From an uncultured Bacillales bacterium (GTDB lineage Bacteria > Bacillota_I > Bacilli_A > RF39 > UBA660), in assembly GCA_948442255.1 (NCBI GenBank), contig CAOJRT010000002.1, positions 8,088 through 72,087 of the forward strand: a stretch of DNA of 64,000 nucleotides, read 5' to 3'. Made by a program: the position numbers and the translations under genes. Positions within the stretch are counted from its first letter, which is position 1. The number at the start of each line of letters is the position of its first letter. Below are positions 5,259 to 60,678 of this stretch, piece by piece. The notes beneath the pieces were generated by a model that worked only from the letters and a program-made list of their open reading frames with translations, was not told the origin of the DNA and ran no database searches.

Positions 5259-5317
5259 ATTTACAAAAAACGACCTAAAGCTTATAATGAAAATCAAGAA
5301 AGGAAATTATAACAAGC

Positions 5318-5644: not shown

Positions 5645-5737
5645 ACATAATAGAAAAAAAGAAGGATTAGACAATCTTAGCGAATATAAGGAAATATTTG
5701 GAAATGACTCCATTCCAAAAAACGTTTCGATGTATAA

Positions 5738-16330: not shown

Positions 16331-16699
16331 TTAACTTTCTTCTAACAAAGAAGCTTTTACCTCTTCGCCTTCTTTTACTAGCTTAATCTTAAGACCATTT
16401 AAAGTCGCTTTACTATTTCTAGGATCAACGACATTCCCCTCTTGATTAACAGAAACATAATATTTACTTTCTACCAAATCTCTAACAGTAATAATTTGCA
16501 CCCCTTCTTGTTCCAAAGTAGAGGAATTCTTCCCATAGAGTTCTGCTTGTCGCAAGATAAGATAAGTAGTCTCTTCATAAATTTCCCCTGCATCATCTTT
16601 AAAAGCATTCGACGTACTAATAACAACTCCTAGGGTAATCACTCCTAAAAGGACAATAACAATTAATAATTCAACTGCCGAATAACCATTCTTTTTCAC
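16331..16699 (-). CDS. prepilin-type N-terminal cleavage/methylation domain protein (type IV pilin/pseudopilin-like)
   Basis: GTG start after GGTGA. N-terminus KKNG|YSAVELLIVIVLLGVITLG fits the class III signal (G / aromatic-x-x-x-E + hydrophobic helix). Confidence 0.75.
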   Translation of the reverse strand: MKKNGYSAVELLIVIVLLGVITLGVVISTSNAFKDDAGEIYEETTYLILRQAELYGKNSSTLEQEGVQIITVRDLVESKYYVSVNQEGNVVDPRNSKATLNGLKIKLVKEGEEVKASLLEES

Positions 16700-16731
16700 T
16701 TTACTTCACCTATAAAAATTATATCACATTT

Positions 16732-17649: not shown

Positions 17650-17676
17650 GTGCTTCACCAATTATAAGTATACCAT

Positions 17677-17700
17677 GAAAAAAATCTCCAGAGGGAGATT
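17677..17700 (-). terminator. rho-independent terminator of the split CotD-like gene
   Basis: Minus strand AATCTCC-CTCT-GGAGATT + TTTTTT, starting 2 nt after the TAA at 17703..17705. Confidence 0.8.
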
Positions 17701-17702
17701 TC

Positions 17703-17819
17703 TTAAAAACCACATTTATTATCATATACATTACATACTTCATTTTCCTCACAACAAGTAAATACAGGTTGATAAGTATGTCTATATATATGATGATTAA
17801 TGATTCTCGTATTGATAGG
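17703..17819 (-). pseudogene. 3' segment of interrupted CotD-like Cys/His-rich gene (no start, RBS or promoter of its own)
   Basis: Frame not listed in the track: (HIV)P-INTRIINHHIYRHTYQPVFTCCEENEVCNVYDNKCGF*. The (V/I)NH.H..H....P pattern resembles the B. subtilis CotD core. Continues the 22627..22830 ORF exactly in frame across the shared CCT. Confidence 0.75.
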
Positions 17820-17854
17820 AACAATATGTCATTGCCCCTTTTTGATAGATTCAT

Positions 17855-18640
17855 TCATTTCTTAATGTATTTACATTTTGGATAATTAGAACACCCAATG
17901 AATTTTCCATATTTTCCATTTTTTTCAACTAATTCATTACCACATTTTGGACATATTATACTATTTTCTAATTCTCTATTATTATTAATTTTAATACGAA
18001 TATCTTTCACATGCTGTTTTCTTAACGACTTATCTTCAATATTATTAGATATAATTATATTTTCTAATTCTTTTATATCATTATCAATAAGTAATTCTTC
18101 ATGTTTTAAAATTTCACTTTTTAAATAATCAACTTGTGTGACTATACTACTACTTTTAACATCAACCTTTGCTTGATTAGAAAAACAAATAATCGAAACA
18201 AAATATTTATCATCTACTTTAAGTAAATTTGATAAAGATTTTATATGGCCAAAATTTTGATGAATAGGATTTACAAAGTAGCTTTTATTTTTTCCTAAAT
18301 ATTGACACCATTTATTATCATATTCTTTTCCTTTAATCAAACCATAATAATTTTTCATTTCGATAACAAAAATTCCAAACCCTGATATAACTACATGGTC
18401 AATTTGATGAGTTCCTTTTTCATCTTTTATCATAATATCATTTAAAACTACATATTTATTTTTAGGTAATTTTTTTAATTCTAATTTTACCCAAAACTCT
18501 CCCATAAATCCTCTAAACTTTGGATAATATATTTTTAATATTATATATAATACTATTAAAACACTTGTTTCTAATAACAACATTGGATTATTTAAATACA
18601 CATTTATAATTCCTTCAATAAAACTTTTAATCATATCCAT
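17855..18640 (-). CDS. NERD domain protein with C-terminal topoisomerase-type C4 zinc ribbon
   Basis: 261 aa. N-terminal TM, NERD-like core (QIDHVVISGFGIFVIEMKNY), C-terminal CPKCGNELVEKNGKYGKFIGCSNYPKCKY. Confidence 0.8.
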   Translation of the reverse strand: MDMIKSFIEGIINVYLNNPMLLLETSVLIVLYIILKIYYPKFRGFMGEFWVKLELKKLPKNKYVVLNDIMIKDEKGTHQIDHVVISGFGIFVIEMKNYYGLIKGKEYDNKWCQYLGKNKSYFVNPIHQNFGHIKSLSNLLKVDDKYFVSIICFSNQAKVDVKSSSIVTQVDYLKSEILKHEELLIDNDIKELENIIISNNIEDKSLRKQHVKDIRIKINNNRELENSIICPKCGNELVEKNGKYGKFIGCSNYPKCKYIKK

Positions 18641-18672
18641 GAAATCACATCCATAATAATTATATCATGATT

Positions 18673-20241
18673 CTAAGCTAAATCATTAAAAGTAGTCTTA
18701 ATATTTATTGTTTTGTCTTCAAATATTTCAATTTTATCAATTAAATTAATTATTAATTCTCTACTTGGTTCTTTCATAGATAAAAATTTATTAATATATT
18801 CATCAATCATTTTATTTTTAGATTCCTCATTAATATTGTCATTAATACTATTATTTAATTCCGTGTATCTTTTTTGCTTTATATTTATTTCATTTTCTAA
18901 CTTAACTTTTACTCTTTCAAATTGTTCTTCAGTTATTTTTTTATTTAACTTATCAATATAAATAATATCTAAATTATCATTTATTTGCTTAATGTCGTTA
19001 GTTAGTCTTTCTAACTCTTTTTTATTATTTAATTTATTATCTTCAGTTAAATTATTTAATACATTATTTTTAACTTTATCTTTATTAATATAATTTAAGC
19101 AGATATTAGTTAATGAATTGATTATAACTTTCTCTAATTCATCATAGTTATTAGAATGAGTTGTACAAAGTTTTTGTTTCATATAAGTCCTATAATAATT
19201 GCAAATTGTATAACATCTATTATCTTTTTTTCTTCTGGATTGTATGGATATTCGATATCCACAATTACCACAATATAATAACCCATCTAATAAATGAATT
19301 TCTTTTTTTTCATTTCTTCCTTTATTTTTAGGTATTCTTTTTTGAACCTCATAAAATTTATCTTTTTCAATGATTGATTCATGAGTATTTTCCACAATTA
19401 TGTAATTATTAGGATTATTCTTAACAACCTTTTTTACCTTATAATTTATTTTACTTCTTCTATTTTGAACCATATCACCTATATACATTCTATTAGTTAA
19501 AATATCTCTTATAGTTTTTGAGTGCCACTCTCCATATTTTAAATTGTAATTACTCTTCCATTCAAAGTTATAATACTGAGCAGGTGTTTTTACTCCTTCA
19601 TTAGTTAATTGTTTGGCAATTTTAAAGAATGATAACCCATCTAAACACATATCAAATATTCTTTTAACAACACTTGCTTGTTCAATATTTATTACTAAAT
19701 GATTTTTATCATCTTTATCTTGATCATATCCAAACGGGGTTCTACCTCCTACCCATTTTCCTTCTTTCATTTTTGCTTTTAAACTAGATTTTATTTTTTT
19801 AGAAATATCTTTTGCATACATATCATTCATTATAGCTTTAAATGGTGCAATGTCATTATTAGAATTATCTAAAAATGTATCTATATTGTCAGTAACTGCA
19901 ATATATCTGACATTATGTTCGGGAAAATACTTTTCTATTAAATTCCCAGTTCCAATATAATCCCTACCTAATCTTGACATATCTTTTGTAATAACCATAT
20001 TTATTTTACCTGATTCAATATCATTTAATAATCTATTGAAATCTGGTCTATCAAAATTAGTCCCTGAATACCCATCATCAATATAAGTATCATAAACTCT
20101 TAAATTATTCTCTTTTACATATTGGAATAATAAACTCTTTTGATTTGTAATACTCTCACTCTCTAATGCTTTATCATCATCTTCTCTAGATAATCTTATA
20201 TAAAGTCCAACATTATATATCTTATTTAAACTCCCTAACAA
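18673..20241 (-). CDS. large serine recombinase (resolvase/invertase N-domain + recombinase domain + zinc ribbon + coiled coil)
   Basis: 522 aa. Catalytic region VGLYIRLSREDD...SITNQ, MVITKDMSRLGRDY. Recombinase domain GRTPFGYD. Zn ribbon LYCGNCGYR...CNYY. Long C-terminal coiled coil. Confidence 0.93.
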   Translation of the reverse strand: MLGSLNKIYNVGLYIRLSREDDDKALESESITNQKSLLFQYVKENNLRVYDTYIDDGYSGTNFDRPDFNRLLNDIESGKINMVITKDMSRLGRDYIGTGNLIEKYFPEHNVRYIAVTDNIDTFLDNSNNDIAPFKAIMNDMYAKDISKKIKSSLKAKMKEGKWVGGRTPFGYDQDKDDKNHLVINIEQASVVKRIFDMCLDGLSFFKIAKQLTNEGVKTPAQYYNFEWKSNYNLKYGEWHSKTIRDILTNRMYIGDMVQNRRSKINYKVKKVVKNNPNNYIIVENTHESIIEKDKFYEVQKRIPKNKGRNEKKEIHLLDGLLYCGNCGYRISIQSRRKKDNRCYTICNYYRTYMKQKLCTTHSNNYDELEKVIINSLTNICLNYINKDKVKNNVLNNLTEDNKLNNKKELERLTNDIKQINDNLDIIYIDKLNKKITEEQFERVKVKLENEINIKQKRYTELNNSINDNINEESKNKMIDEYINKFLSMKEPSRELIINLIDKIEIFEDKTINIKTTFNDLA

Positions 20242-20411
20242 TTTTTACCTCCTTCTAGAGATAAATAAGTACATGACGATGGTACCTCACTTTTTTTATT
20301 TTTACAAATCATTTGAATATATTTTTTAAGCTCTTTATTTAAAATTTTTATAAGAATATCATTTATATCATTATTTTCGTCATAAATATAATTAATTTTG
20401 TACTTACCCAT
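20235..20411 (-). CDS. small protein translationally coupled to the recombinase (possible accessory/directionality factor)
   Basis: 58 aa from ATG 20411 (GTGAGGTG upstream). Its stop overlaps the recombinase start by 7 nt. No recognisable family. Confidence 0.45.
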   Translation of the reverse strand: MGKYKINYIYDENNDINDILIKILNKELKKYIQMICKNKKSEVPSSCTYLSLEGGKNC

Positions 20412-20857
20412 TATTAAGCACCTCACTTAAATTTATGGATAAATTACTAATTTTAGTAATACTAAATTGAGTAATATACAAATTACGCATATATTTAGTA
20501 TTACTTATAAGCTCTCACTCCTAACATAAACATCATCTCCTTTTTGCATGATGCATGATAGCTCCACTAAGAAAGCGAGTCAAGTCTTAAACTATAGAAA
20601 ATTTTGTCTATCATCCTAAAAATATTCATAATTTAATGGGTTATGAAATAGCAGGATAAGAAGTTTGTGTATCAATACATAGTTTTCGTTTTGAAATAAA
20701 GAAAACTATATACACAATTCTTATTTTGCACTCGCAAAATTCAACCTATTTGGTAGGATGGTATCAAGGATAAGTCTAATAATAGCAATAATTTTAAGTA
20801 CAAAAAAATCATCCTATTGTCTAATTTTTACTAGATTTAGTAGGATGATAAATTTTT

Positions 20858-21610
20858 TTAATTGTTTTCTTCTATTTCAAAATTTAATAATTCATCACAA
20901 GTCTTTTCAAATAAATCTTGCTCGTGTTTTATGGTATCAATTAAGAACATTTTATCACTAGTATATTCTTTTAAACCTCTCATATAATAAGGTTTATCAT
21001 CATCTAATACAATGAATGGCATAATGTTATTTCTTAAGCATTCTTTAAACATAATAATTCTACCAACTCTCCCATTGCCATCTCCAAAAGGGTGAATTTT
21101 CTCAAAATTATAATGAAAATCAATAATGTCTTCTAAAGTAATATTAGTTTTTGAATTGTATTCAACAAGTAATTTATCAATTTCTTTTTCTACATCTTTT
21201 GGTGCAGTAGTATTGATAACATTAACAAGACCTATCATATTTGGAACTACTTTAAATCCCCCAACATTGTATCTAGGATTTTCTTCATCGCTAGTATTTC
21301 TTTTTAATATTTTATTCATTTCAATAATAATTTCTTTTGATAACTCATTATCAACATGATCTAACATATAATCAAATAATTTAAAATGATTTTTAGATTC
21401 TGTTAAATCATCTAATTTTATCAAATCATCACTTTTAGGAATAAAACTTGATGTATCAAATATGGCCTCAGTCTGATCACTAGTTAACCTACTACCTTCA
21501 ATTTTATTTGAATTATAAGAAAAATTAACTTGAGAATAATGATAGATATTACCTTTAAATTTTGATTCTTTTTGTTTGATTAATTCCTTTTTAATTTTAC
21601 TTATATCCAT
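20858..21610 (-). CDS. Fic family protein (AMPylase-type, with N-terminal inhibitory motif)
   Basis: Start at ATG 21610 (GGAGGA 9 nt upstream). Fic motif HPFGDGNGRVGR. N-terminal SNKIEG matches the (S/T)xxxE(G/N) auto-inhibition helix. Confidence 0.9.
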   Translation of the reverse strand: MDISKIKKELIKQKESKFKGNIYHYSQVNFSYNSNKIEGSRLTSDQTEAIFDTSSFIPKSDDLIKLDDLTESKNHFKLFDYMLDHVDNELSKEIIIEMNKILKRNTSDEENPRYNVGGFKVVPNMIGLVNVINTTAPKDVEKEIDKLLVEYNSKTNITLEDIIDFHYNFEKIHPFGDGNGRVGRIIMFKECLRNNIMPFIVLDDDKPYYMRGLKEYTSDKMFLIDTIKHEQDLFEKTCDELLNFEIEENN

Positions 21611-21611
21611 A

Positions 21612-22520
21612 TTACATGTCCTCCAATGAAATATTAATACCTGACTCACAATGTTTATAAAATTCTAAAGCACTTAAATGATATTTTGGCTTTTTATAAT
21701 TATATATACAGAGGTTATTTTTATTATAATTATTATTTAGTTCATATTTAATAAATTTATCTCTTACATCAATTAATAAATCTTTTAAAAAGTTATATTC
21801 GTGTATACCTTTAAATCTTTCCCACGAATGTTCAAACCAATAATATTTATTATTTTTTTCAAAAGTTAAATACGTATGAGTAGGACATTTGTCATTATCA
21901 TAATGAACTATAAAATATGTTTTAATATTCCAATCATTTCCTTTAAAATAATATCTTTCTAGTTCTACTTGATCCCAACATACGCCAACTTTATTTTTAA
22001 TAATTTCTTTAGGACTTTGTAAAATATAATTATCTGAATAAGATTCATCAACTATTGTATGTTTATTATTGCTTGTGTCAACCCATCCATATTCGATATT
22101 TTCCATTAAGTTCATAATTTCAAACTCGTTATAAAATTGCCAAATATTAAGTTGTCCTTTTGCTTTTATAGGTTTTATAGGTTTAATATCTTCAAGTATC
22201 CAAGCATATCTTCCTTCTTCATATTTACCACAAATATATTCTTGATAATTATTTTTTTTCATTTCTTCTACATAATCTTTTGTCATATATACACAATCAA
22301 CTAAAGTACATTTGCATATTATATAACCAAAATTAAGTGGTATATTATCTACGAGTGACATAAATTCAGTATCTTCCTTCCAATCTTTAGGAATAGCAGT
22401 AGCACCAGCATGAATATATAATTCACCCCTATAAGTTGTTTTCCAACTTCTTGTCTCAATTAACTTCTTTTTTTCTTTTATCAAAGTAGCACAAGGTTCT
22501 GTTAAACTTAATACCTTCAT
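21612..22520 (-). CDS. ASCH (PUA-like) domain fused to a transglutaminase/papain-like C-terminal domain
   Basis: Start at ATG 22520 (AGGTGA upstream). N-terminus MKVLSLTEPCATLIKEKKKLIETRSW is ASCH-like. C-terminus has GVCWDQ...PTHTYL...WFEHS, a Cys-His-acid arrangement. Confidence 0.6.
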   Translation of the reverse strand: MKVLSLTEPCATLIKEKKKLIETRSWKTTYRGELYIHAGATAIPKDWKEDTEFMSLVDNIPLNFGYIICKCTLVDCVYMTKDYVEEMKKNNYQEYICGKYEEGRYAWILEDIKPIKPIKAKGQLNIWQFYNEFEIMNLMENIEYGWVDTSNNKHTIVDESYSDNYILQSPKEIIKNKVGVCWDQVELERYYFKGNDWNIKTYFIVHYDNDKCPTHTYLTFEKNNKYYWFEHSWERFKGIHEYNFLKDLLIDVRDKFIKYELNNNYNKNNLCIYNYKKPKYHLSALEFYKHCESGINISLEDM

Positions 22521-22626
22521 TAAAATCACCTATAAACATTATATCATACAAAAAGACATTTCTTATTAAAACGCCTTTCATTTTGTACTTATTTCTCTCT
22601 TTATATTTTTGGTCTATCATAAATTA

Positions 22627-37498: not shown

Positions 37499-38062
37499 GT
37501 GCAGTACCCTAATAACATTAGAAAGACATATAGTAAAATAAATGTCTCTCATAGTAATAGAGGAATGAGCTTAGAAAACGCCCTCAATCTAAGTAATAAA
37601 TACTACTTAGATAAAGATATCGCTTTAATATACAAAAAGCCAACTCCTATAGGAATTGTCGATGTTTCTTATAAAAATAATAAAAAAGTAATTGAAAAAG
37701 CTTATTTTAAAGAACAATCAACTTTAGATTATAATGGACTATATAGAGGAAAATACATTGATTTTGATGCCAAAGAAACACTAAATAAAACCGCATTTCC
37801 TTTATCAAATATCCACGAACATCAATCGATTCATATAAGAAATGTCATTCGTCATAAAGGAATTGTCTTTCTTATTATAAGAATGAACGCCATCACATAC
37901 CTATTAACTGGAAAAGATTATATTAACTATATTGATAATACAAAGAGAAAATCAATTAGTTACAAGTATATTGAAGAAAAAGCATATATAATAAAAGAAA
38001 GTTATCAACCACCACTCGATTATTTAAAAGTGGTAGATGAAATCTATTTTAAAGGAGAATGA
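37499..38062 (+). CDS. recU: Holliday junction resolvase RecU
   Basis: The track ORF starts at GTG 37490. GTG 37499 (GGTGA 5 nt upstream) gives MQYPNN..., like the B. subtilis N-terminus. Upstream of ponA as in Bacillus. Confidence 0.85.
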   Translation: MQYPNNIRKTYSKINVSHSNRGMSLENALNLSNKYYLDKDIALIYKKPTPIGIVDVSYKNNKKVIEKAYFKEQSTLDYNGLYRGKYIDFDAKETLNKTAFPLSNIHEHQSIHIRNVIRHKGIVFLIIRMNAITYLLTGKDYINYIDNTKRKSISYKYIEEKAYIIKESYQPPLDYLKVVDEIYFKGE

Positions 38063-40818
38063 AAATGAGTACAGAAAACAAAAGTACTACAAAGACAAAA
38101 AAGAAAGCATTTGTATCTGTCAAACAAAGTAATAATCCAACAATGAAAATAACGAAAGTAAAAAAAGAAAAACAAAAGAAGAAAAAAAATCCTGAAAAAA
38201 CAAAGAAAATAATCAATGTTCTATTATCAATTATAATGATACTAGGCATATTCGTAATGATAGCAATCATTAGTTTTAGTGCTTATATAGCCTTAAATGC
38301 TCCTCCCTTTGAAGCAGACAAATTATATAGTACAGAAGCTACTATATTATATGATAAAAATGGCGATGAATTTGCTCGTTTAGGGAGAGAACAAAGAGAT
38401 ATTGTAAAATACGAAGAATTACCAGAAGTATTAATCGATGCAATCGTTGCAACAGAAGATTCAAGATTTTTTCAACATAATGGTTTCGACTTTGTTCGAT
38501 TTGTTAAAGCTTCTTTAGGGCAACTCGCTGGTCAAGACGGAGCTGGTGGCGCTTCAACATTAACCATGCAAGTGGCAAAGAACTCTTTTTCTAAAGACGA
38601 AGCCACTGGAAAAATTGCTTCTTCAGGAATCGCTGGTATTATCCGTAAATTTAATGATATATATATTTCTGTATTTAAAATAGAAAAAAATTATACTAAA
38701 GAAGAAATTATTGAATTTTATGTCAATGCTCCTGGTCTTGGAAATAATACATTTGGAGTTGAACAAGCTTCTAGAAAATACTTTGGAAAATCTGTAAGTA
38801 ACCTTACGCTTCCTGAAGCCTCTCTACTTGCTGGAATATTCAATGCTCCTTCTCTTTACAATCCATACTATTCTCCTGAATTAGCCAGCCAAAGACGTGC
38901 AGTTGTTCTTAACCTAATGGTAAGACATGGCTATATTACAGAAGAACAAGCAGAAGGCGCTAAAAATATCTCAGTCGAATCTCTAACGGCTGAAAGTACA
39001 AGTGTTGGCTTAAACAGATATCAACAATTTATTGATATCGTATGTGACGAAGTAGAAAAAAAATATGGTGTAAATCCAGCAAATGTTCCAATGGAAATTT
39101 ATACTACTATGGATCCTGCAATCCAAGAAGTATACGTCGCTCTAAATAATCAAGATCTTGATAATAAAGGAATCATTAGTCAAGAACAAGACCCAACCAA
39201 ATTAGAAAAAAGAAAAAAGAATGCCTATGTTTTCCAAAGAAGTTATATGAAATCAGACTTCATTCAAATTGCTTCTATTGTAACAGACGTTCATGATGGC
39301 TCTATAAGAGGTGTAAACGGCGGAAGAAATCAAACCAGAGAAAGAGCTTTAAGTCAAGCAACAAGAGGTGTCATGCAACCAGGGTCAACTGCTAAACCAA
39401 TTTTTGCTTATGGTCCTTATATTGAATACAATAATGGAAATACAGGAACTATATTTTATGATAACAAAATGAACTATTCAAATGGACAATCAATCAAAAA
39501 TTCAGATGGAAAATTTAAGGGCGCTATGACAATGCGAGATGCTTTATCCCAATCAAGAAACATTCCAGCTGTACAAGCATTCCAAGCAGTAGATAAAGAA
39601 AAAATTGCCGAATTTGTCCATAACTGTGGAATTGATTATGGTGATACCCTATTAGAAGCCTTTGCTATTGGAGGAGGACTAGAAGTAAACCCTAAAATTA
39701 TGGCAGCAGCCTATGGAACATTCGCTAGAGGTGGATATTATATTGAACCTTATACCTTCACGAAAATCGTGTTCAGAGAAACCGATGAGGTAGAAGAAAT
39801 AAAACCAGAATGGGTAAAAGCCATGAGTTCCGAAACCGCATACATGATTACAGATATACTTAGAACTGCTGCGCAAAATAAAGTTGGTGGTGTATACACA
39901 GGAGTAAGAGGAACTGAAATAGCTGCCAAAACAGGAACATCCACTTATGATGCTAATTTCTTAAAACAACAAGGAATACCAAGTAGTGCATCAGATGATA
40001 ACTGGGCTATCTCCTACTCTCCTGATTATGTTATCGCTCTTTGGTATGGTGTTGAGTTTGCCACGAAAGATGCTTATACAGACTCTGTCAGAGCAGCAAA
40101 CGAAGTAAGAACAATCAATACACTACTTGTAAATAATATTTATAAAGAAAATTCAAAATTCAATCGACCATCAAATGTCATTGCAGCAGAATATGAAAAC
40201 GAAACAATTCCAGCTGAATTACCATCTGAATATACACCTCAAGATTATAAATCAACAGAACTTTTTAAAAAGGGGACTGAGCCTAGTGTAGTTTCAGAAA
40301 GATTTAGTGAGTTAAGTAATCCAACAAAAGGAGAAGCCATAAGCTCAGGTGGCACTATCAAACTAAGTTGGGAAGGTATACCAACACCAAATGCAATCAA
40401 CACAAGTTACTTAGACAATTACTTTACTAAAAACTATGGAAAATTTAAAGATATCTATTTAGAAAAACGCTTTGAATACAACAATACACAAATTGGTACA
40501 GTAGGATATCATGTATATCTTAGTACTCCATCAGGTTTAATTTCCTTAGGATATACAACCAATACATCTTACGAATATACTGTTACAGCACCAGGAACTT
40601 ATACCTTTGTTGTAAAATCTGAATATAGTATATTTAAATCTAATGCTTCAAGTGGATTAACAATTACAGCAAAAATAAAAGATATCACATCTGTAGAACC
40701 ATCTAATCCAGATGATGATACTAGCAGCGACGACAAAGATTCAGATAACGAAGACGATAAAAAGGAAGACAATCCTTCCTCAGGTAATTCACAAACAGGA
40801 AATAAAAAAGAAAATTAA
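38059..40818 (+). CDS. ponA: bifunctional class A penicillin-binding protein (GT51 transglycosylase + transpeptidase) with Lys-rich N-terminus, and an FN3-like domain plus acidic tail at the C-terminus
   Basis: 919 aa. EDSRFFQHNG, GASTLTMQ (GT51); STAKP, SRN, KTGT (TPase). Alternative ATG at 38065. Confidence 0.93.
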   Translation: MKMSTENKSTTKTKKKAFVSVKQSNNPTMKITKVKKEKQKKKKNPEKTKKIINVLLSIIMILGIFVMIAIISFSAYIALNAPPFEADKLYSTEATILYDKNGDEFARLGREQRDIVKYEELPEVLIDAIVATEDSRFFQHNGFDFVRFVKASLGQLAGQDGAGGASTLTMQVAKNSFSKDEATGKIASSGIAGIIRKFNDIYISVFKIEKNYTKEEIIEFYVNAPGLGNNTFGVEQASRKYFGKSVSNLTLPEASLLAGIFNAPSLYNPYYSPELASQRRAVVLNLMVRHGYITEEQAEGAKNISVESLTAESTSVGLNRYQQFIDIVCDEVEKKYGVNPANVPMEIYTTMDPAIQEVYVALNNQDLDNKGIISQEQDPTKLEKRKKNAYVFQRSYMKSDFIQIASIVTDVHDGSIRGVNGGRNQTRERALSQATRGVMQPGSTAKPIFAYGPYIEYNNGNTGTIFYDNKMNYSNGQSIKNSDGKFKGAMTMRDALSQSRNIPAVQAFQAVDKEKIAEFVHNCGIDYGDTLLEAFAIGGGLEVNPKIMAAAYGTFARGGYYIEPYTFTKIVFRETDEVEEIKPEWVKAMSSETAYMITDILRTAAQNKVGGVYTGVRGTEIAAKTGTSTYDANFLKQQGIPSSASDDNWAISYSPDYVIALWYGVEFATKDAYTDSVRAANEVRTINTLLVNNIYKENSKFNRPSNVIAAEYENETIPAELPSEYTPQDYKSTELFKKGTEPSVVSERFSELSNPTKGEAISSGGTIKLSWEGIPTPNAINTSYLDNYFTKNYGKFKDIYLEKRFEYNNTQIGTVGYHVYLSTPSGLISLGYTTNTSYEYTVTAPGTYTFVVKSEYSIFKSNASSGLTITAKIKDITSVEPSNPDDDTSSDDKDSDNEDDKKEDNPSSGNSQTGNKKEN

Positions 40819-40838
40819 AATAAGGGAAGCACATTTCC

Positions 40839-41774
40839 TTATTTTATTTTGTCTAACAAACTTATATATTCGGCAAATTCTTTCTTTTTTGTAATTGAAA
40901 AAACATATAAAATTCTTCCTCGTAAACTTTGAAGATAAAAACTTTTATCTTGTATAGAAAGTTTAGCAATATGTGAATCAATGCCATACTTATTTATATA
41001 ATACATTTCTTGACGAACCTTCTTTAAATAACTTCTTTTTATATTAACCTTTTGATTAACTACTAATCCTGTAACCAATAAAGCTCTGTTTTGATAGATT
41101 ACTTTAGTCTTCTCTCTATTAAGAAAAAGGCCTTTTTTCTTAAGTTTCTTTTTAACAAAAGCAATTAATTCTTTATCGTCAAAAATATCTCCTGAAAAAG
41201 TCATATCATCACTATATCTTGTATAAACAAGACCTTTTTCTAAAGCATACTTATCCATTTCATAATCAAAATCACGCATAAATAGATTTGAAATGGCAGG
41301 ACTAGTAGGTGCTCCCTGTGGCAAAAAATCAGCATAGCAACACAAGTTAGTTAATAAAACACCTACACTTTTAGGATAATAAGAAAAACAGCATTTATAA
41401 ACATCTAAAAAAGAAATACGATCAAAAAAATGGGCAATATCTAACTTTACAATTTTTTTCTTACCCACATGAGGAAGTGCATTTGCATAAATACCATTTC
41501 CTTTTTTATAAGCTGTTGCTACTGGAGTTATCTTTTTTTCTGCTAAAATAGTATCTAATATTCTTCGTTGTGCAAATTTCAGCATTTTACTTGGCTCATA
41601 AATAGTTCTTACTTTTCCATTTCTTTTTCTTATATAAAAAATCTTATAATTCTCAACAATATGATTACTCAACATATATAATTTTTGAAAATATTCTTTT
41701 TCCGATTTAGTTTCTTCCACTAAAAAAAGAGAAAGTAGAAACAAACGAATTTCTTTTATGACTTCTTCATTCAT
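40839..41774 (-). CDS. retron-type reverse transcriptase
   Basis: 311 aa. RTIYEPSKMLKFAQRRIL, NALPH, LDIAHFFDRI, LPQGAPTSPAISN, YTRYSDDMTFS (YxDD), retron-specific LLVTGLVVN. AGGAGA RBS. Confidence 0.9.
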   Translation of the reverse strand: MNEEVIKEIRLFLLSLFLVEETKSEKEYFQKLYMLSNHIVENYKIFYIRKRNGKVRTIYEPSKMLKFAQRRILDTILAEKKITPVATAYKKGNGIYANALPHVGKKKIVKLDIAHFFDRISFLDVYKCCFSYYPKSVGVLLTNLCCYADFLPQGAPTSPAISNLFMRDFDYEMDKYALEKGLVYTRYSDDMTFSGDIFDDKELIAFVKKKLKKKGLFLNREKTKVIYQNRALLVTGLVVNQKVNIKRSYLKKVRQEMYYINKYGIDSHIAKLSIQDKSFYLQSLRGRILYVFSITKKKEFAEYISLLDKIK

Positions 41775-41790
41775 TCTACCATCTCCTACA

Positions 41791-41941
41791 AAAGCAATAC
41801 AAAAGAATATACAAATGCGCGAATGTAACGAGCTACTACGTGAAGCGTAGAATATTACATGGAAGTATTTGTATTCATCCTATACTAAACTTCATCCCTT
41901 AGTGACTCACTAAAGTGGATTCCTCCAAACACTATTGCTTT
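41791..41941 (-). ncRNA. candidate retron msr-msd non-coding RNA (ends approximate)
   Basis: 9-bp a2/a1 inverted repeat AAAGCAATA (41941..41933) / TATTGCTTT (41799..41791). msr hairpin TTAGTGA-G-TCACTAA (41913..41899). Long imperfect msd hairpin ~41876..41805 with tip CTACG-CTTCA-CGTAG. Directly upstream of the RT. Confidence 0.7.
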
Positions 41942-41948
41942 CGGCCTT

Positions 41949-41977
41949 ATTGTATCATAACAAAAACAGCAAGACAA
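41949..41977 (-). promoter_or_regulatory. candidate promoter of the retron ncRNA-RT transcript
   Basis: TTGTCT, 17 nt, TACAAT, immediately after the nth stop. The predicted start falls ~7 nt before the a2 repeat. Confidence 0.45.
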
Positions 41978-42601
41978 TCATAAATTCTTATCCTTACTTG
42001 TACAATCTGCAAAGAATAAACATTCTTTACAATCTGGTTTTTTAGCTTTGCAAATATATCTTCCAAACAAAACCATTTGATGATGAGTTCTACTCCATAA
42101 CTTTTTAGGAACAAACTTCATTAACTTCTTCTCTACTTCTAAAACAGAATCATTCTTTTTTGCTATTTTAAGTCGTTTAGAAACTCTCTCAACATGAGTA
42201 TCTACAGCTATAGCAGGAACATCAAACAAATTAGATAAAACCACATTCGTGGTCTTTCTCCCTACTCCTGGTAAACTCTCTAAATACTCTCTATCATTAG
42301 GAACAACCCCATTATACTGTGTAACTAAACTAGTTGCAATAGCAATAATATAAGCGGATTTCTTCGTAAAAGAACCAAGAGGTTTTACAATTTTTTCTAT
42401 ATCTTTTTTTTCAGCTTTACTAAGTCCATAAATATCATAATGACTAAACAAATCATTCGTTACTTCATTGACTCTTTTATCTGTGCATTGAGCGGATAAA
42501 ACTACAGCAATTAATAATTCATAATCTCGATTATAATGTAATTCACATTTAGGATGAGGAAACATCTTATCTAGTTTTTCATTAAAACAACTTATACCCA
42601 T
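41978..42601 (-). CDS. nth: endonuclease III
   Basis: HhH-GPD motif LPGVGRKTTNVVL...VDTHV, 4Fe-4S cluster CKAKKPDCKECLFFADC. ATG 42601 overlaps the dnaD stop (TAATG). Confidence 0.93.
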   Translation of the reverse strand: MGISCFNEKLDKMFPHPKCELHYNRDYELLIAVVLSAQCTDKRVNEVTNDLFSHYDIYGLSKAEKKDIEKIVKPLGSFTKKSAYIIAIATSLVTQYNGVVPNDREYLESLPGVGRKTTNVVLSNLFDVPAIAVDTHVERVSKRLKIAKKNDSVLEVEKKLMKFVPKKLWSRTHHQMVLFGRYICKAKKPDCKECLFFADCTSKDKNL

Positions 42602-43260
42602 TACGCATCCAACCAATCATAATCTAATATTTCTTGTTCTTTTTTACTAAGCTCTTTGTCTTTTGATTTCTCTTCTCTTCTATTACGCATATGCTTCTTG
42701 ACATCATCCATCGTTTTAAAGCCCTTTTTCTCCCATTCATAGATGATTTTGTCAATATATCTAAAATTACTCACACCATTATAAACTGCTTCTCGTAAAG
42801 CCCCTAAAATGATTTCCTCCGATACACCACTAATAAGCCATCCATTAATAAGCTCTAATTCCATAGAAGAGATTGTTCTTCCAAGTTCTCTTTCAAATAC
42901 TTTAAAAATATCTTCTTTTGTCCCTTTCTCTTTTTTTTCTGTAGCCACTTCTAAGATTTTATTATAAAGTCCGTCCAATTGAACAACCTCAATAAATCTC
43001 CCCATCTCATCTTTAACACTATCTAAAGAAACAAATCCCTTCAATACCAAAGTATTAAACGCCTCCATAGCATCATTCATATCCATAGATAAAACTTGAC
43101 TAATAAGTTCAATCTCAAAACGTTTACTAAAACTATTTTCTAAATAGACAAGTACTAAAAAAGAAGGCAAAGACAATTCTTCTTGTAAAGAAACTTGAAT
43201 AATAGAATCAGCTACAACTAAATTTTTCCTCTTTAAAAAATCCTTCACAATCTCCTTCAT
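42601..43260 (-). CDS. dnaD: replication initiation / membrane attachment protein DnaD
   Basis: 219 aa. DnaB_2/DnaD C-terminal domain (ELINGWL..., NFRYIDKIIYEWEKKGFKT). dnaD-nth synteny. Confidence 0.85.
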   Translation of the reverse strand: MKEIVKDFLKRKNLVVADSIIQVSLQEELSLPSFLVLVYLENSFSKRFEIELISQVLSMDMNDAMEAFNTLVLKGFVSLDSVKDEMGRFIEVVQLDGLYNKILEVATEKKEKGTKEDIFKVFERELGRTISSMELELINGWLISGVSEEIILGALREAVYNGVSNFRYIDKIIYEWEKKGFKTMDDVKKHMRNRREEKSKDKELSKKEQEILDYDWLDA

Positions 43261-44350
43261 CTAACCACTTCTCTCTATTTTGTTCTACATAAGAAACTAC
43301 CGCTTCATGAGTATTTTCAAGTTCATGATTTAATATCTTATCTTTTAAATCCTCATACACAACACGTATAATTTTAGAAGGATCTATCTGCAGTATAGAA
43401 CAAATCTCCATACTATCAATTTGTATATCTTTTATACTTTTAATTTCTAAACTTTTATAAATTGTACTAATATCCTCTGGCAACAAACCTAATATAGAAC
43501 CAGCTACAATAGAAACATACAAATCATAGGAAAATAAAATATTTTTATCTATCTTACCATACTTTACAATACTTTGAATATTTTTTATCATTTCTTTTTC
43601 TTCTTTTGTAAAAGGATATTCTTTACGCATCTCTAACTGACTATACATCCCACAAATATCGGAAACTTGTACAACATTTGCATAATCGATTCCCAAGTAA
43701 GGAAGAAAACCTAAATCTCTTAAAATATCCAATCCTCTTAAAGCATTCGGACTTGATAAAATTTTCGTAAGTTCTTCTTTCACTCTCTCTAAAGACAATT
43801 CTTCTAATAAAGAAGCTTGTTTCTTTAATTCAGTATATAAAGTAATATCAATTTGAAAATCCAAACGAGTCGCAAAGCGAACAGCTCTTAACATACGTAA
43901 AGGGTCTTCTTGAATTCGTTCACTAACCTCCCCAACAGCTCGTATAACACGATTCTCTATATCCGATTTCCCGCCTAATAAATCAATTATCGTTCCATCA
44001 CGATTCATACATAATGTATTCATGACAAAATCTCTTCGGTTAATATCATCAATTAAATTATCAACATATTCTATCTCTACGGCTCTTCTCGACCCATTAT
44101 ATTTTAAATCTCTTCTATAGGTTGTAATATCAATATTATAATGGTCACTAATTAACTTAACCGAGCCATACTCATTACTAGTCGCATTTCCATTCCCAAA
44201 TATATCTAAAATATCTTTTACTTTCGCATTGGTACAAATATCTATATCATGAGAAGCAATCCCTAAAAGAGAGTCTCTTACATACCCTCCAACAATATAA
44301 GCTTCAAATCCTTTTTCTTCTATTCTCTTTAAAATATCTCTTACTTCCAT
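43208..44350 (-). CDS. cca: CCA-adding tRNA nucleotidyltransferase
   Basis: 380 aa. GGYVRDSLLG...HDIDI head domain, RRDFVMNTL, DPLRMLRAVRF. Confidence 0.9.
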   Translation of the reverse strand: MEVRDILKRIEEKGFEAYIVGGYVRDSLLGIASHDIDICTNAKVKDILDIFGNGNATSNEYGSVKLISDHYNIDITTYRRDLKYNGSRRAVEIEYVDNLIDDINRRDFVMNTLCMNRDGTIIDLLGGKSDIENRVIRAVGEVSERIQEDPLRMLRAVRFATRLDFQIDITLYTELKKQASLLEELSLERVKEELTKILSSPNALRGLDILRDLGFLPYLGIDYANVVQVSDICGMYSQLEMRKEYPFTKEEKEMIKNIQSIVKYGKIDKNILFSYDLYVSIVAGSILGLLPEDISTIYKSLEIKSIKDIQIDSMEICSILQIDPSKIIRVVYEDLKDKILNHELENTHEAVVSYVEQNREKWLDEGDCEGFFKEEKFSCS

Positions 44351-44386
44351 TGTATCTTCCTATCTATTATAAAAAGAGATAAATAA

Positions 44387-45025
44387 TTATCTCAATTGAT
44401 CAATCTGTTTTTGAAAATTCTCTTGCATACAGACAAAAGAACCACCAATCACCATATCAGCCCCTGCTTCTTTACAAAGCAAGGCAGTCTCTCTATTAAT
44501 GCCCCCATCTACTGAAATAATATAATGATAATGATTTTGCTCTCTTACTTCTTTTAATGTCTCAATTTTATAAAGCACTTCAGGTAAAAAGGCTTGTCCC
44601 CCTTCTCCAGGTTTTACACTCATAACCAAAACTTGATCAATATGAGCAAGCATTGGTATAATCTTATGCACTTTAGTCTCTGGATTAATCGCAATTCCCA
44701 CTTTTAACTTTGCATGACGAATCATATTAATAACGTCAATCGGTTTTCTATGGGCTTCAAAGTGCAACGTTAAGTATTCCAAATTAGGAACTTTAGCAAA
44801 ATCCTTAATATACTTATTTGGAGAGCTACACATCATATGCACATCTAACTTTTTATTTATATTTTTAAACAATTTCCTTATATCTGCCACACTATAGTTA
44901 AGGGAAGGAACAAAAATCCCATCCATCATATCAACATGAATATAATCACAATCAGTGACCTCTATTTTTTTTAAAGCCCCCTCTAAATCATCTTTAATTT
45001 TCAAAAAAGAAACAGCTACTTTCAT
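44387..45025 (-). CDS. rpe: ribulose-phosphate 3-epimerase
   Basis: 212 aa. HVDMMDG, VMSVKPGEGGQAF, DGGIN. Confidence 0.92.
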   Translation of the reverse strand: MKVAVSFLKIKDDLEGALKKIEVTDCDYIHVDMMDGIFVPSLNYSVADIRKLFKNINKKLDVHMMCSSPNKYIKDFAKVPNLEYLTLHFEAHRKPIDVINMIRHAKLKVGIAINPETKVHKIIPMLAHIDQVLVMSVKPGEGGQAFLPEVLYKIETLKEVREQNHYHYIISVDGGINRETALLCKEAGADMVIGGSFVCMQENFQKQIDQLR

Positions 45026-56717: not shown

Positions 56718-58586
56718 TTAGTGCTTCTTTCGAAAAGTCTTTTTTTGATAATTAATTTCATTAACAGCTATTAATTGCTCACTTAATAATATAAGAGGAA
56801 TAAAAACAATATTAGTAATCCTTTGCTCTTTATCAAAATAAATCTTCAAATGACAAGCTCCATTCTGTACTCTATCTTTAAACAAAGAAGGTAAAGAACA
56901 AATACCATTAACAGTATCTATACTCATTCGGTGAAAATGTCCCAACAAATCAACATAAAAATCATCTGCACTTCTTCCTTCATAAGAATCATAATCCCCA
57001 ACAAGGTCAAATAATTCTTGTGTATGATAAAAATCATCTTCTATATGACTTTCGCATTTCAAATTCGGATGATGTAATGCAACACTATGATAGGTTCCTT
57101 TGTCATTTCCAAAATGAATAAAAGCGTGTTTATATCCCAAATCAATAAAATCTTCTCTTTTCTCTGCCAAAGATTGTATTAAATTGACACCATTCTCTAA
57201 ATAAGTCAAATCATGGTTTCCGCCCATTATAGCCTGTGTAATGGAAGAATCATAAGGATGTTTTAAACAGAATTGCTCCATCCGTCCCACTACCAAAGAA
57301 ATATTTTCTTTTTTTATTATCTGTTCATAATAAGCATCAGAAAAGAAATCTCCTGCATTTATAATTAAATGAACGTTATTTTTTATACAATAGTTATATA
57401 AAATATCCATTCTATACTGAAAAGCATCATCAACTACCTTTATATGATAATCAGACACAAAGACCAAATCAAGTGAAGTAGCAGAAGGTTCTATATCTAT
57501 AAAAAAATTCTTATAAATTGCATATAAAGAACGACAAAACCTATAGCGAAAAGGAAAGCATGCCTTATTAGGCGAAATAATATTGTATTGTCTAGATAGA
57601 ATCTGCAATCTTTGATAAATAACTTCTCTATCTCTTTTTAGTTGGTTCACTAAATACTCCATCGTCACACCATTAGGATTTTTAGTTAATTCTTGAATGA
57701 TAAGAGAATCAAGTGATTTTTCTTCTTCTAAAATAATTATAGAATCTTTTTTCTCATTTATATATTGTACATTTTCTTCTTGTACATGTTTTAATAAAGT
57801 CTGACAATTTTCTAACTCTTTTTCTAATGCTTGTACTTGTAAACACAACGAATCATACTCTTCCCCTTTAAGAGTTGCTTGTTTTAATTGACGTTCTAGT
57901 TCCCGCTTTATCCTTTCATAATCTTTTAAATTCTTTTTCTGCTCTTCTATTAAATCTTTTAAATCTTTAATTGTTCTTATTTTCTCTTTTCTATCTTTTT
58001 GTAAACGAGTAATAGAGGATTCCTTTTTTTCTAAAATTTTTGTTAAAGAAATAACTTTCTCTTCTAAAGTAGAAATATCCTTCTTTAAAGATTCTATCTC
58101 TTCTTTTAAAAGTAATTCTTCCTTTCTAGAATTGTCAGCAGAACCTTTGTCTAAATTTTCTAAATGTCCCATATCCTTACTTCCATTAATTCCATCTATT
58201 TCTAAATGATAGTTGATTAAGACTTTACCCATATCTTCTAACAACTTATATAAATTTATATCTTTTTCTTTCCCTGTTCTTTTTAGATAATCTAAATACT
58301 TATTTCTAATAGTTTCTAATTTTTCAAAGCAAGAAGAATCTAAATCCATTTTTTGCAAGGTATGATAAACTAAAATCATAACAATCATATAGACCCAAGT
58401 TGAAAAACGTTTCGGCAACTCATCATCACTAGAAAGGAATTTATCTATATTTTCATATAAATAAAGAATAATTTCCTCATCAGACACTTTTTTACTAAGA
58501 GTTGCTCGAATAACATCATAATGTAAAGATTTTACTCCTTTTTGTATTACCCCATTTAATTTTATTTTATCAGCAACTGTTAACAT
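56718..58586 (-). CDS. coiled-coil protein with C-terminal calcineurin-like metallophosphoesterase domain
   Basis: 622 aa. Central heptad-rich region (~150-290). MPE motifs SDYH, AGDFF, GGNHD, GHFH. Confidence 0.7.
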   Translation of the reverse strand: MLTVADKIKLNGVIQKGVKSLHYDVIRATLSKKVSDEEIILYLYENIDKFLSSDDELPKRFSTWVYMIVMILVYHTLQKMDLDSSCFEKLETIRNKYLDYLKRTGKEKDINLYKLLEDMGKVLINYHLEIDGINGSKDMGHLENLDKGSADNSRKEELLLKEEIESLKKDISTLEEKVISLTKILEKKESSITRLQKDRKEKIRTIKDLKDLIEEQKKNLKDYERIKRELERQLKQATLKGEEYDSLCLQVQALEKELENCQTLLKHVQEENVQYINEKKDSIIILEEEKSLDSLIIQELTKNPNGVTMEYLVNQLKRDREVIYQRLQILSRQYNIISPNKACFPFRYRFCRSLYAIYKNFFIDIEPSATSLDLVFVSDYHIKVVDDAFQYRMDILYNYCIKNNVHLIINAGDFFSDAYYEQIIKKENISLVVGRMEQFCLKHPYDSSITQAIMGGNHDLTYLENGVNLIQSLAEKREDFIDLGYKHAFIHFGNDKGTYHSVALHHPNLKCESHIEDDFYHTQELFDLVGDYDSYEGRSADDFYVDLLGHFHRMSIDTVNGICSLPSLFKDRVQNGACHLKIYFDKEQRITNIVFIPLILLSEQLIAVNEINYQKKTFRKKH

Positions 58587-58659
58587 AAGATGCCCTCCTA
58601 AAATTACTATCTATTGTAATAAATTTTTTTCTAATTGACAATAAAAAATGTACTCTTCC

Positions 58660-60678
58660 TTAAGAAGAATACACGATTAATTCATGTTGCGCTCTTGTAC
58701 AAGCTACGTATAATAAATTTTTTTCGTTTTTAAGATATTTACTTTCTTTATCACTATAAACAATAACACTATCAAACTCTAATCCTTTCGCTAAATAAGC
58801 GGGTAAAACAACTAATTCTTTATTAAATTCTTCACTATTCCCATTTAATAAAGAGATTGGATAATCTTCTTTCAATGCTTCATACAATTTAGATGAAGTT
58901 TGACTATCTCTTGTAATAACAGCAACTGATTTATATTTATCCCTTAAATAAGCTATATCGTTCGTTAATTCTTTACTATCTGTACGATGAATTAAAGGAA
59001 CTTGTTCTGTTTTACGTATTGCACAAACATGATTTAAGCCTAAAATTTTATTAGTAAATGCAATAATCTCTGGACTAGAACGATACGTTTTCGTTAAAGA
59101 AATACATTTACTTTGTTTAAACAAATTAGCAAGTATATCTAAACTCTCATATTTATAATAAGGATTAATCGTTTGATTTACATCTCCTAATATAGTAAAA
59201 TTACTATTTCTAAAAATCTTACTAATAATAAGATATTGTAAATAACTATAATCTTGTGCTTCGTCAATAACGACTTGTCTTATATCTCGTTCATAGCCAA
59301 AACCTTCTAGTAGTCCTTTCATATAAACAAATAAAAGCGCATCTTCATATTTTATCGTTTTACTATTTAAAAATTCTCTAATATCTTTATTTTGCATTCT
59401 TATTTTACAAAAATCACTGCTAAAGAATCCCAAATAAATATCTTTATAATCTTTCTTAAAACTACTATTTTCAAAAATTAATTTTCTATAAGTAGGTTTC
59501 TTTTTTATACTTCCTTTATAATTCTGTTCACTCAGTTTTTCAGCAATTAAATCTACTCTCTCAAAAAAAGGTAACATATTATAACGTTCATGCAATAACG
59601 AATTAATCTCCTCTTTACGCACATCATAGATTTTATTCTCTGTAAAGTCATGAACCATACGTGCTTTCCTAACATAATCTTCTATATATAAATCAATATC
59701 TTGTATTATTCCATCACTCTGTTTATAAGAAACAAGTTCTATATCTTTTTCTTTATCTGTATAATATTTTCCTATAAAATCCATAAATGGTTCAACAGAA
59801 GAAAACTCTGTAATAACACTTCCTAAGTAATCATTAAATGTTGTTTGTAATGTATTATCCTCTCCTAACTCTGGTAATACATTAGAGATATACTCTGTAA
59901 ATATTTGATTAGGAGAAAGGATTAAGACATCATTACTTGTTAAATTCTTTATTTTATAAAGTAAGAAGGCAATACGATGCAAAGCAACACTTGTCTTTCC
60001 ACTTCCAGCTATTCCAGACACAATAAGTGTTTTATCTCTTACATTTCGAATAACATGATTCTGTTCTTGCTGAATGGTATTAACAATATTTTTCATTTTC
60101 TCATTATTATTTGTCGCAAGAACTTCTTGTAATAATTCATCATCAATGCTGATGGAATTATCAAAAGCACTTACAAGTTTCGCTCCCACAATTTTATATT
60201 GTCTCTTTCTTAAAAGATTTCCTTTAATTGGTCCTTCTGGAGCGGCATAGGAAGCAGGCCCTACTTCATAATCATAAAACAAACTACATATAGGACTTCT
60301 CCAATCATAGATAATATTCCCGTAATCATCATCTTTTAGATAAGTAAGACCAAGATAGACACTAAAACGATCTCCCTCTTCATCTTCAAATACCACAGAA
60401 GCAAAATAAGGATTATCTTTAATACGATATAAACGCTTAAAATACTCTCTTTTCATAAGAAGCTGATTGGCTTCCAATTCGCTTTCTACATTGACTTGGT
60501 TTAACTCTTGTGCATCCATGGCACGTCGATTCTCCCAAGCATATTTACGAAATTCTAAAAACTTATCTTCTCCTTCAAAAATAGTCTCCCCCATCTTTGC
60601 AAGCTTATCATTTAGTAATTTCAATACTTCCTCAAGTCTTTTCTCTTCAAGTTCTAAATCTCTTCCAGTAATTGCCAT
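58660..60678 (-). CDS. helD: UvrD/Rep-family helicase, HelD-like
   Basis: 672 aa. N-terminal coiled/arm region with PYFASVVF block, Walker A GIAGSGKTSVALHR, DEAQD, C-terminal LYVACTRAQH. Confidence 0.8.
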   Translation of the reverse strand: MAITGRDLELEEKRLEEVLKLLNDKLAKMGETIFEGEDKFLEFRKYAWENRRAMDAQELNQVNVESELEANQLLMKREYFKRLYRIKDNPYFASVVFEDEEGDRFSVYLGLTYLKDDDYGNIIYDWRSPICSLFYDYEVGPASYAAPEGPIKGNLLRKRQYKIVGAKLVSAFDNSISIDDELLQEVLATNNNEKMKNIVNTIQQEQNHVIRNVRDKTLIVSGIAGSGKTSVALHRIAFLLYKIKNLTSNDVLILSPNQIFTEYISNVLPELGEDNTLQTTFNDYLGSVITEFSSVEPFMDFIGKYYTDKEKDIELVSYKQSDGIIQDIDLYIEDYVRKARMVHDFTENKIYDVRKEEINSLLHERYNMLPFFERVDLIAEKLSEQNYKGSIKKKPTYRKLIFENSSFKKDYKDIYLGFFSSDFCKIRMQNKDIREFLNSKTIKYEDALLFVYMKGLLEGFGYERDIRQVVIDEAQDYSYLQYLIISKIFRNSNFTILGDVNQTINPYYKYESLDILANLFKQSKCISLTKTYRSSPEIIAFTNKILGLNHVCAIRKTEQVPLIHRTDSKELTNDIAYLRDKYKSVAVITRDSQTSSKLYEALKEDYPISLLNGNSEEFNKELVVLPAYLAKGLEFDSVIVYSDKESKYLKNEKNLLYVACTRAQHELIVYSS

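Follow-up and report, generated by a model that had tools for sequence, protein, structure and literature searches.

Does the reverse transcriptase (RT) gene that lies between nth and ponA in an uncultured gut Bacilli genome belong to a complete retron and, if so, where is its effector? The whole stretch of DNA analysed here (64,000 nucleotides, referred to as the window) had been described in an earlier note as carrying a compact retron with no adjacent effector. That note left three options: an effector-less (orphan or decayed) retron, one with an effector encoded in trans, or one with a different role. We conclude that the locus (40839-41942, minus strand, plus its promoter) is a real and intact retron, made up of an RT and a structured template RNA, with no adjoining toxin gene. 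Promoter, 153-nt msr-msd RNA and 311-aa RT are all that the cassette comprises. Very probably it works as a stand-alone retron that makes msDNA, belongs to the clade-2 ‘Ec107-like’ lineage and is selectively maintained; msDNA synthesis at the locus, which we infer from the sequence, is very likely.

Stand-alone Ec107-like retrons are already published as a class, of which the present locus is a further example, and the novelty that had been claimed for an effector-less retron was therefore overrated. Mestre et al. (2020; PMC7736814) defined stand-alone (msr-msd)-RT cassettes as the Ec107 branch of clade 2, originally 59 RTs, and left open whether they rely on unknown trans effectors or have another function. 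In SPIRE genomes the same type, there termed clade2_Ec107like, is the second most abundant retron group (192 loci; 93% Bacillota, 91% host-associated); the survey reports no recurrent accessory module and rates the group as ‘low novelty’ (bioRxiv 10.64898/2026.05.14.725207).

The RT belongs to the retron family

The RT gene and the two genes that flank the element are as follows.

40839-41774, minus strand: retron RT, 311 aa, no extra domain (PADLOC, Pfam, PDB matches, dN/dS)
41978-42616, minus strand: nth (endonuclease III), left flank, outside the retron (Pfam HhH-GPD/HHH)
38059-40818, plus strand: ponA (class A PBP), right flank, convergent, outside the retron (Pfam Transgly and Transpeptidase)

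Among the PADLOC models RT_Ec107-like scores best for the RT (364 bits, E 1.2e-109) and aligns over positions 3-303 of its 307; RT_III-A comes second (308 bits, E 1.7e-92), and all other retron types lie lower. Pfam detects RVT_1 alone (E 6e-22), and in NCBIfam the retron families score best, yet below their strict cut-offs. The ten top sequence matches in the PDB are all retron RTs, as are 14 of the 18 overall, and the closest solved structure by this measure is the Ec86 RT (E 9e-39). The hallmarks that had been read from the 311-aa ORF are borne out: NALPH occupies residues 98-102, LPQGAPTSP 151-159, YSDD 187-190 and VTG 234-236, and six residues (N98, H102, D189, D190, T235, G236) do not vary among 35 aligned homologues. 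PADLOC, NCBIfam and PDB comparisons all place the enzyme among the retron RTs and not with those of group II introns, DRT or Abi systems. By HMM ranking it goes with the Ec107 branch rather than with type III-A1 or other types; membership of this branch is thus a probable assignment that rests on the order of the PADLOC HMMs and the published description.

Relatives of the RT number in the thousands; they are stand-alone proteins of 305-330 aa from gut and rumen metagenomes, mostly labelled as uncultured Bacilli. The window RT branches early in the RT tree and shares 50-55% identity with the bulk of the family. A search of IMG/VR for phage carriage gave just four distant matches (30-38% identity), so the family is not phage-borne.

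The upstream RNA has a conserved msr-msd architecture

The gap upstream of the RT is 203 nt long (41775-41977). Within it we assign the following features, numbered on the window and read on the minus strand.

41790-41942, minus strand: msr-msd ncRNA, whole unit, 153 nt (covariance model and covariation)
41933-41941, minus strand: a2 inverted repeat AAAGCAAUA, msr 5′ end (exact repeat; helix 1 covariation)
41932, minus strand: putative branching (priming) guanosine, directly 3′ of a2 (column at least 90% G in the family alignment)
41916-41927, minus strand: msr hairpin 1, UGGA-GGAA-UCCA (helix 3: 92.6% paired, 4/4 pairs covary)
41897-41915, minus strand: msr hairpin 2, CUUUAGUG-AGU-CACUAAGG (G-AGU-C core near-invariant; columns GA.T invariant)
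41800-41876, minus strand: msd, long imperfect stem with inner CUACG-CUUCA-CGUAG hairpin (helices 5-9, 89-98% paired, all with compensatory changes)
41791-41799, minus strand: a1 inverted repeat UAUUGCUUU, ncRNA 3′ end (exact repeat with a2)

The 9-bp inverted repeat on which the earlier note had based its a2/a1 assignment, AAAGCAATA (41933-41941) and TATTGCTTT (41791-41799), is exact and unique in the window, and none of 100 shuffles matches it. It ends 16 nt before the ATG, not 17 nt as had been stated. The long msd-like hairpin was recovered as a repeat at 41809-41828 and 41855-41874. Folding of the single sequence adds little, as the 203-nt, AT-rich gap shows no extra stability over shuffled sequences (z = -0.27); the evidence for the RNA is for this reason comparative, not thermodynamic.

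For the comparison, the upstream regions of 55 non-redundant loci were extracted and aligned. They have a common layout: an extended -10 box, a2, a conserved G, a short hairpin, a second hairpin, the msd, an invariant G, a1, a Shine-Dalgarno sequence and the ATG. In the family a2 reads GCAGUA or GCAAUA and is followed by the conserved G, the second msr hairpin is CUUUAACG-AGU-CGUUAAGG with a near-invariant G-AGU-C core, and the msd is a long stem around a CUACAC...GUGUAG hairpin whose primary sequence is unusually conserved. G41800, beside a1, is invariant. The consensus structure comprises ten helices with 45 pairs, and 92.1% of the positions concerned are paired across the 55 sequences versus 34-47% in slid controls, in which the 3′ partners were shifted by 1-3 columns. 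Compensatory double changes occur in 41 of the 45 pairs, and the covariation score is 0.319 against ∼ 0.07; none of 500 shuffles reaches the observed values. Helix 1, formed by a1 and a2, is 94.8% paired (5/7 pairs with compensatory changes) and helix 4, the second msr hairpin, 99.1% (7/8).

A covariance model built from 54 relatives, with the window left out, recovers 41790-41942 on the minus strand over its full length (model positions 1-168 of 168; 96 bits, E 5e-15), and this is the sole significant match in the 64 kb. The short msr-like and long msd-like hairpins that the earlier note had proposed are hence well founded, and on these comparisons we regard the msr/msd assignment as solid. 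The position of the corresponding nucleotides in characterised retrons suggests that G41932 would be the branch point and that reverse transcription would start at G41800. An Rfam scan of 38000-45000 (E up to 10) gave no retron family, and Rfam holds no family equivalent to the Ec107_like model; its only two hits, to sraA and ctRNA, were discarded as chance matches to the ponA terminator hairpin.

Promoter and translation signals

Two further elements flank the RNA within the gap.

41949-41977, minus strand: promoter; -35 TTGTCT (41977-41972), 17-nt spacer, extended -10 TGaTACAAT (hexamer 41954-41949)
41783-41787, minus strand: Shine-Dalgarno AGGAG, 8 nt before the ATG (read from the sequence)

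The -35 box starts at the base right after the nth stop codon. The promoter-like TTGTCT-17-TACAAT that had been noticed here is present, and as a single site it is no better than chance: a scan of this AT-rich DNA found eight promoter-like sites where 8.8 are expected. What speaks for it is conservation, since a TGnTATAAT box lies 5-8 nt upstream of a2 throughout the 55-sequence alignment. A GGAGG box is likewise conserved across the RT family. Because promoter-like sites occur at chance frequency and the fold is no better than shuffles, the window sequence taken alone is suggestive, not conclusive. The gap has a single ORF (30 aa, 41885-41977), which was rejected as a conserved gene: its frame is broken by a 5-nt length difference in hairpin 1 in L104, a related locus whose RT is 78% identical.

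Insertion site and inheritance

The flanking genes are housekeeping genes, as had been proposed, and Pfam identifies RecU, Transgly/Transpeptidase, HhH-GPD and DnaB_2/DnaD on an identical contig. On contigs with the identical RT the gene order is rlmN, PP2C, PASTA kinase, rsgA, rpe, CCA-adding enzyme, dnaD, nth, the retron and ponA; ponA and recU lie beyond the retron on the opposite strand, followed by divIVA and on to recA and rny. The RT and ponA are convergent and separated by 20 nt, as the earlier note had it, and the right edge of the insertion coincides with one further feature.

40821-40841, no strand assigned: palindromic terminator hairpin, common to the RT and convergent ponA; overlaps the RT stop codon and forms the right edge of the insertion

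Two related loci, L105 and L109 (nth 79% identical), have the same gene order and no retron. Their nth and ponA genes are 11 nt (L105) and 24 nt (L109) apart, and an equivalent palindromic, bidirectional terminator lies between them. The closest nth relative, L107/L108 (82% identical), has a 279-nt gap between nth and ponA. This gap was searched for a retron remnant and showed no blastn similarity, the best covariance-model hit (E 0.76) lying elsewhere in the locus; a covariance-model search of L105, L107 and L109 gave no significant match. By these comparisons the element is a precisely bounded insertion between the nth stop codon and the ancestral palindrome. The previous estimate of roughly 1.1 kb becomes ∼ 1.16 kb, with the empty nth/ponA junctions of L105 and L109 as reference.

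L104 comes from a second species (nth 80% identical) and carries its RT at the same position downstream of dnaD-nth. The dN/dS of the RT between the window and L104 is 0.16 at ∼ 22% amino-acid divergence. The L104 ncRNA scores 99.7 bits with the covariance model and differs by compensatory substitutions, e.g. CUACG...CGUAG to CUACA...UGUAG. The RT turned up on 31 contigs, and 32 carry the identical nth allele, so that virtually every contig of the species has the element. A retron at the same site in L104 and in virtually the whole of the species indicates that it was acquired before the species split and became fixed, and the shared site together with the low dN/dS shows vertical inheritance under purifying selection, not decay.

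An island with Fic, NERD and recombinase genes lies 20 kb from the retron. These genes have no known link to retrons.

Neighbourhoods and the search for an effector

We surveyed the neighbourhoods of 98 related loci from gut and rumen metagenomes. In none of them does the RT carry a fused domain, and the complete RTs are uniformly ∼ 305-340 aa long. The immediate neighbours form 70 different upstream/downstream combinations. Each neighbour family is confined to 15 of the 98 loci at most, and those that do recur are mostly housekeeping genes or unannotated. The sole constant is the upstream gap of ∼ 200-290 nt, that is, the ncRNA. A gene for a PRTase-like or winged-helix protein adjoins the RT neither at our locus nor at any of the 98, and among the window ORFs scanned no retron-type effector (PRTase-like, ATPase or other) was found. 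The locus has no cis-encoded partner, and the claim that accessory ORFs and fused domains are missing thus stands, with RVT_1 as the only Pfam domain and the 98 loci free of fusions and of a family-wide partner.

In terms of classification, a tripartite retron defence system (types I-XIII) is recognised by a co-occurring effector gene or fused domain and type III-A by a neighbouring PRTase-like protein, which a winged-helix protein may accompany. Neither arrangement is seen at the locus, nor is the latter seen in its flanks or among the recurrent neighbours of its relatives. For want of an effector the locus falls outside the tripartite systems and outside type III-A, whereas on every point open to sequence analysis it agrees with a retron and with the Ec107-like stand-alone class. 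Across the lineage no accessory module recurs, in agreement with PMC7736814 and bioRxiv 10.64898/2026.05.14.725207; the one exception is a sub-lineage of 9 of the 98 loci.

In these nine loci an ABC-type ATPase (AAA_15/AAA_21, 288 aa, weakly PtuA/AriA-like) lies directly upstream on the same strand, and the outer flanks differ. ATPase homologues that are at least 88% identical have the ncRNA (158-163 bits) and then the RT behind them, whereas homologues at 74-83% identity occur without either. In the RT tree the RTs linked to the ATPase fall at scattered places. The ATPase was considered as a general retron partner and rejected, since it is absent from the window and its 74-83% identical homologues come without a retron. 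It may be an effector of the sub-lineage or a favoured insertion site; given its position upstream in some relatives, ‘no effector’ may not hold for every member of the family.

Comparison with known retrons

Retron-Eco5 (Ec107) of Escherichia coli is the obvious counterpart. Both are minimal, with an msr-msd and an RT of ∼ 310-320 aa, no fused domain and no conserved accessory gene, and both are chromosomal, sit between housekeeping genes and show no features of a prophage or mobile element. Ec107 took the place of a 34-bp intergenic palindrome, without traces of a mobile element (PMC6868368), which the empty site at our locus, the palindromic nth/ponA terminator, closely recalls. The YxDD box is non-canonical in both (YCDD in Ec107 and YSDD here, versus YADD). 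They differ in host (a gammaproteobacterium versus uncultured low-GC gut Bacilli) and in flanks (pyrE/ttk versus nth/ponA). The msDNA of Ec107 is 107 nt, whereas ∼ 75-85 nt are predicted here, and the likeness is one of PADLOC model and description.

Type III-A1 retrons, which combine the RT with a PRTase-like and a winged-helix protein, are the sister RT lineage within clade 2, in line with RT_III-A as second-best model, but their two partner proteins have no counterpart next to the RT here or in the 98 related loci. Retron-Eco1 (Ec86, type II-A) has the closest solved RT and the same ncRNA logic of a1/a2, priming G and msd stem-loop. In contrast to our locus, it has an adjacent NDT-type toxin that is checked by the msDNA-RT complex.

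The SPIRE clade2_Ec107like group appears to be the same population as the window retron, and our 98 loci give the same picture. Relative to the portion of that preprint available to us, the early branching of the window RT is a difference, and the present analysis adds the insertion site with its exact borders, the empty-site relatives, the ATPase-linked sub-lineage, and the dN/dS and other signs that the element is under selection and of vertical descent.

Proposed mechanism and alternative explanations

We propose that transcription of the cassette would start at its own extended -10 promoter. With no terminator in between, dnaD-nth transcripts probably run on into it as well. The ends of the RNA would pair via a1/a2, and the RT, translated from the same transcript, would bind the conserved msr hairpins. 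It would then prime from the 2′-OH of G41932 and copy the msd from G41800 towards ∼ 41876. The product would be a branched msDNA, predicted at ∼ 75-85 nt, that carries a stem-loop. As a working guess, the RT-msDNA complex may serve as a phage-sensing or nucleic-acid-binding module. It would have either a host-factor partner encoded elsewhere or no dedicated toxin at all, and we hold the two to be about equally likely.

A stricter form of the first option would be a tripartite abortive-infection retron split over two loci, with a dedicated effector elsewhere in the genome. It is a serious contender, although we would not bet on it. Every retron defence system that has been characterised by experiment depends on an effector (PMC7736814, PMC10849725), the unusual conservation of the msd primary sequence would fit recognition by a specific protein, and the genome was inspected within 64 kb only. 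On the other hand, none of the window ORFs tested is effector-like, homologues of the known retron-associated proteins are missing from most genomes that have an orphan retron (Mestre et al., PMC7736814), and cooperating defence genes are normally adjacent, in contrast to the 70 unlinked neighbourhoods seen here.

The second option, an effector-independent role of the RT-msDNA complex, is put forward tentatively and with comparable reserve. Without a toxin, the complex may act as a decoy or sponge that binds nucleic-acid-binding proteins of phage or host, or as a stress-linked regulator. In its widest form, which we hold with similar doubt, this reading would make the Ec107-like retrons in gut Bacillota domesticated elements, passed on vertically, whose RT-msDNA could work without a toxin effector. 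The strongly conserved primary sequence of the msd, purifying selection on the RT and a complete lack of gene linkage would all fit it.

Taken together, non-function and a missed partner in cis are improbable. The element could in principle be a decaying remnant that has lost a PRTase-type effector and persists, functionless, by inertia; the sister type III-A1 has PRTase-like effectors, which Mestre et al. suggested the Ec107 branch to have lost (PMC7736814), and RT_III-A ranks second among the PADLOC models. This is very unlikely for an RT with a dN/dS of 0.16 and all catalytic motifs intact, an ncRNA whose pairs are kept by compensatory changes, a conserved promoter and Shine-Dalgarno sequence, and an element that occurs in essentially all contigs of its species and has thousands of intact relatives. 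Of the options named at the outset, ‘decayed’ is accordingly disfavoured.

We give equally little credence to a cis effector that was overlooked, be it nth, ponA or a small hidden ORF. Endonuclease III acts on DNA and would be co-transcribed with the cassette, there being no terminator between them, and Ec107 adjoins pyrE, which was once suspected as its partner (PMC7736814). Against this, the dnaD-nth and ponA-recU order is unchanged in related species without the retron, other family members adjoin unrelated genes, the 30-aa ORF is out of frame in L104 and the gap to ponA measures just 20 nt. Finally, that the RT is of another bacterial kind (group II intron maturase, DRT or Abi) next to a fortuitous hairpin is hardly conceivable, because the partial NCBIfam matches to Drt2, Drt3a and group II RT are weak (E 1e-11 to 1e-18) and confined to the catalytic core, the retron models score 100-300 bits higher over the full length, the retron-specific NAxxH and VTG regions are present, the upstream RNA shows the a1/a2, msr and msd layout with strong covariation, and there is no intron RNA, maturase or endonuclease domain or DRT partner.

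Implications

The functional stand-alone retron that we favour makes the locus a clean natural example of an effector-less retron: a minimal 1.16-kb cassette with exactly defined borders and sister species in which the site is empty. Its vertical inheritance and purifying selection argue against simple decay. If the toxin-free reading is true, retrons are not obligatorily tripartite abortive-infection systems. In the census of Khan et al. (PMC10849725) clade 2 is among the highest producers of RT-DNA, and a compact, effector-free, low-GC member could therefore serve as a chassis for genome editing in Firmicutes. The cassette is small enough to be synthesised.

Conservation of the msd and probable read-through into the retron

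The msd of the stand-alone Ec107-like retron (window 41800-41876) is conserved not only in structure but also in primary sequence, among loci whose RTs are only ~50% identical (A2 and A3, alignments of the retron ncRNA regions of the window and its relatives). Examples of the conserved stretches are CUACAC..GUGUAG and GUCCAUUUCCAUAUUACAAUAUC. Such conservation is unusual among retrons, and hints that the msDNA could be recognized in a sequence-specific manner.

At the nth/ponA junction, all relatives carry a palindromic bidirectional terminator, including L105 and L109, whose junctions lack a retron.

Palindromic terminator at the nth/ponA junction
40821-40841, window
~5612-5645, L105
~5615-5650, L109

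In the window, the terminator hairpin contains the stop codon of the RT. Since no terminator separates nth from the retron promoter, transcription from the dnaD-nth operon is likely to read through into the retron.

The closest nth relative (82%) has a 279-nt nth-ponA gap (L107 4466-4744, L108 977-1255) that shows neither similarity to the retron nor a match to the covariance model built from the ncRNAs of 54 relatives. The gap may be a divergent 3' extension of ponA or another small insert.

An ATPase-linked sub-lineage

In one sub-lineage of Ec107-like retrons (L036, L042, L067, L069, L070, L074-L077, L111-L115 and L119-L121), the gene immediately upstream of the ncRNA and RT encodes an ABC-type ATPase of 288 aa (AAA_15/AAA_21) that weakly resembles PtuA/AriA.

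Arrangement at one such locus, L111
3501-4364, ATPase
4383-4556, ncRNA
4572-5528, RT

The outer flanks vary among these loci. The retron is absent beside ATPase homologues of 74-83% identity, one of which forms a pair with a DUF5680 gene. The presence of the ATPase next to these retrons could reflect either a role as lineage-specific effector or an insertion hot spot. For the Ec107-like clade, the accessible part of the SPIRE retron survey reports no accessory module (bioRxiv 10.64898/2026.05.14.725207).

Other loci of the window

A small minus-strand island (16331-22529) appears to be an integrated element of mobile or defence type, unrelated to the retron.

Genes of the island
16732-17661, -, RimK-like ATP-grasp protein
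17855-18640, -, NERD nuclease with topoisomerase-type zinc ribbon
18673-20241, -, large serine recombinase
20858-21649, -, Fic-domain protein (PADLOC candidate defence family PDC-S04, E 3e-99)
21612-22529, -, ASCH/transglutaminase-like protein

Further along (56718-60678), a 672-aa UvrD-like helicase (58660-60678), which weakly matches models for GajB and for DRT-associated helicases, adjoins a 622-aa protein (56718-58586) for which Pfam and PADLOC give no match. Between 60822 and 63687, two short paralogues of 89 and 145 aa, which share the motif LPIGSVV/LPIGTVV...GG.KK.MI.GY, are encoded downstream of a protein of 711 aa that matches nothing in Pfam, a layout that we take to resemble DUF4176-type genes beside an LXG-like polymorphic toxin.
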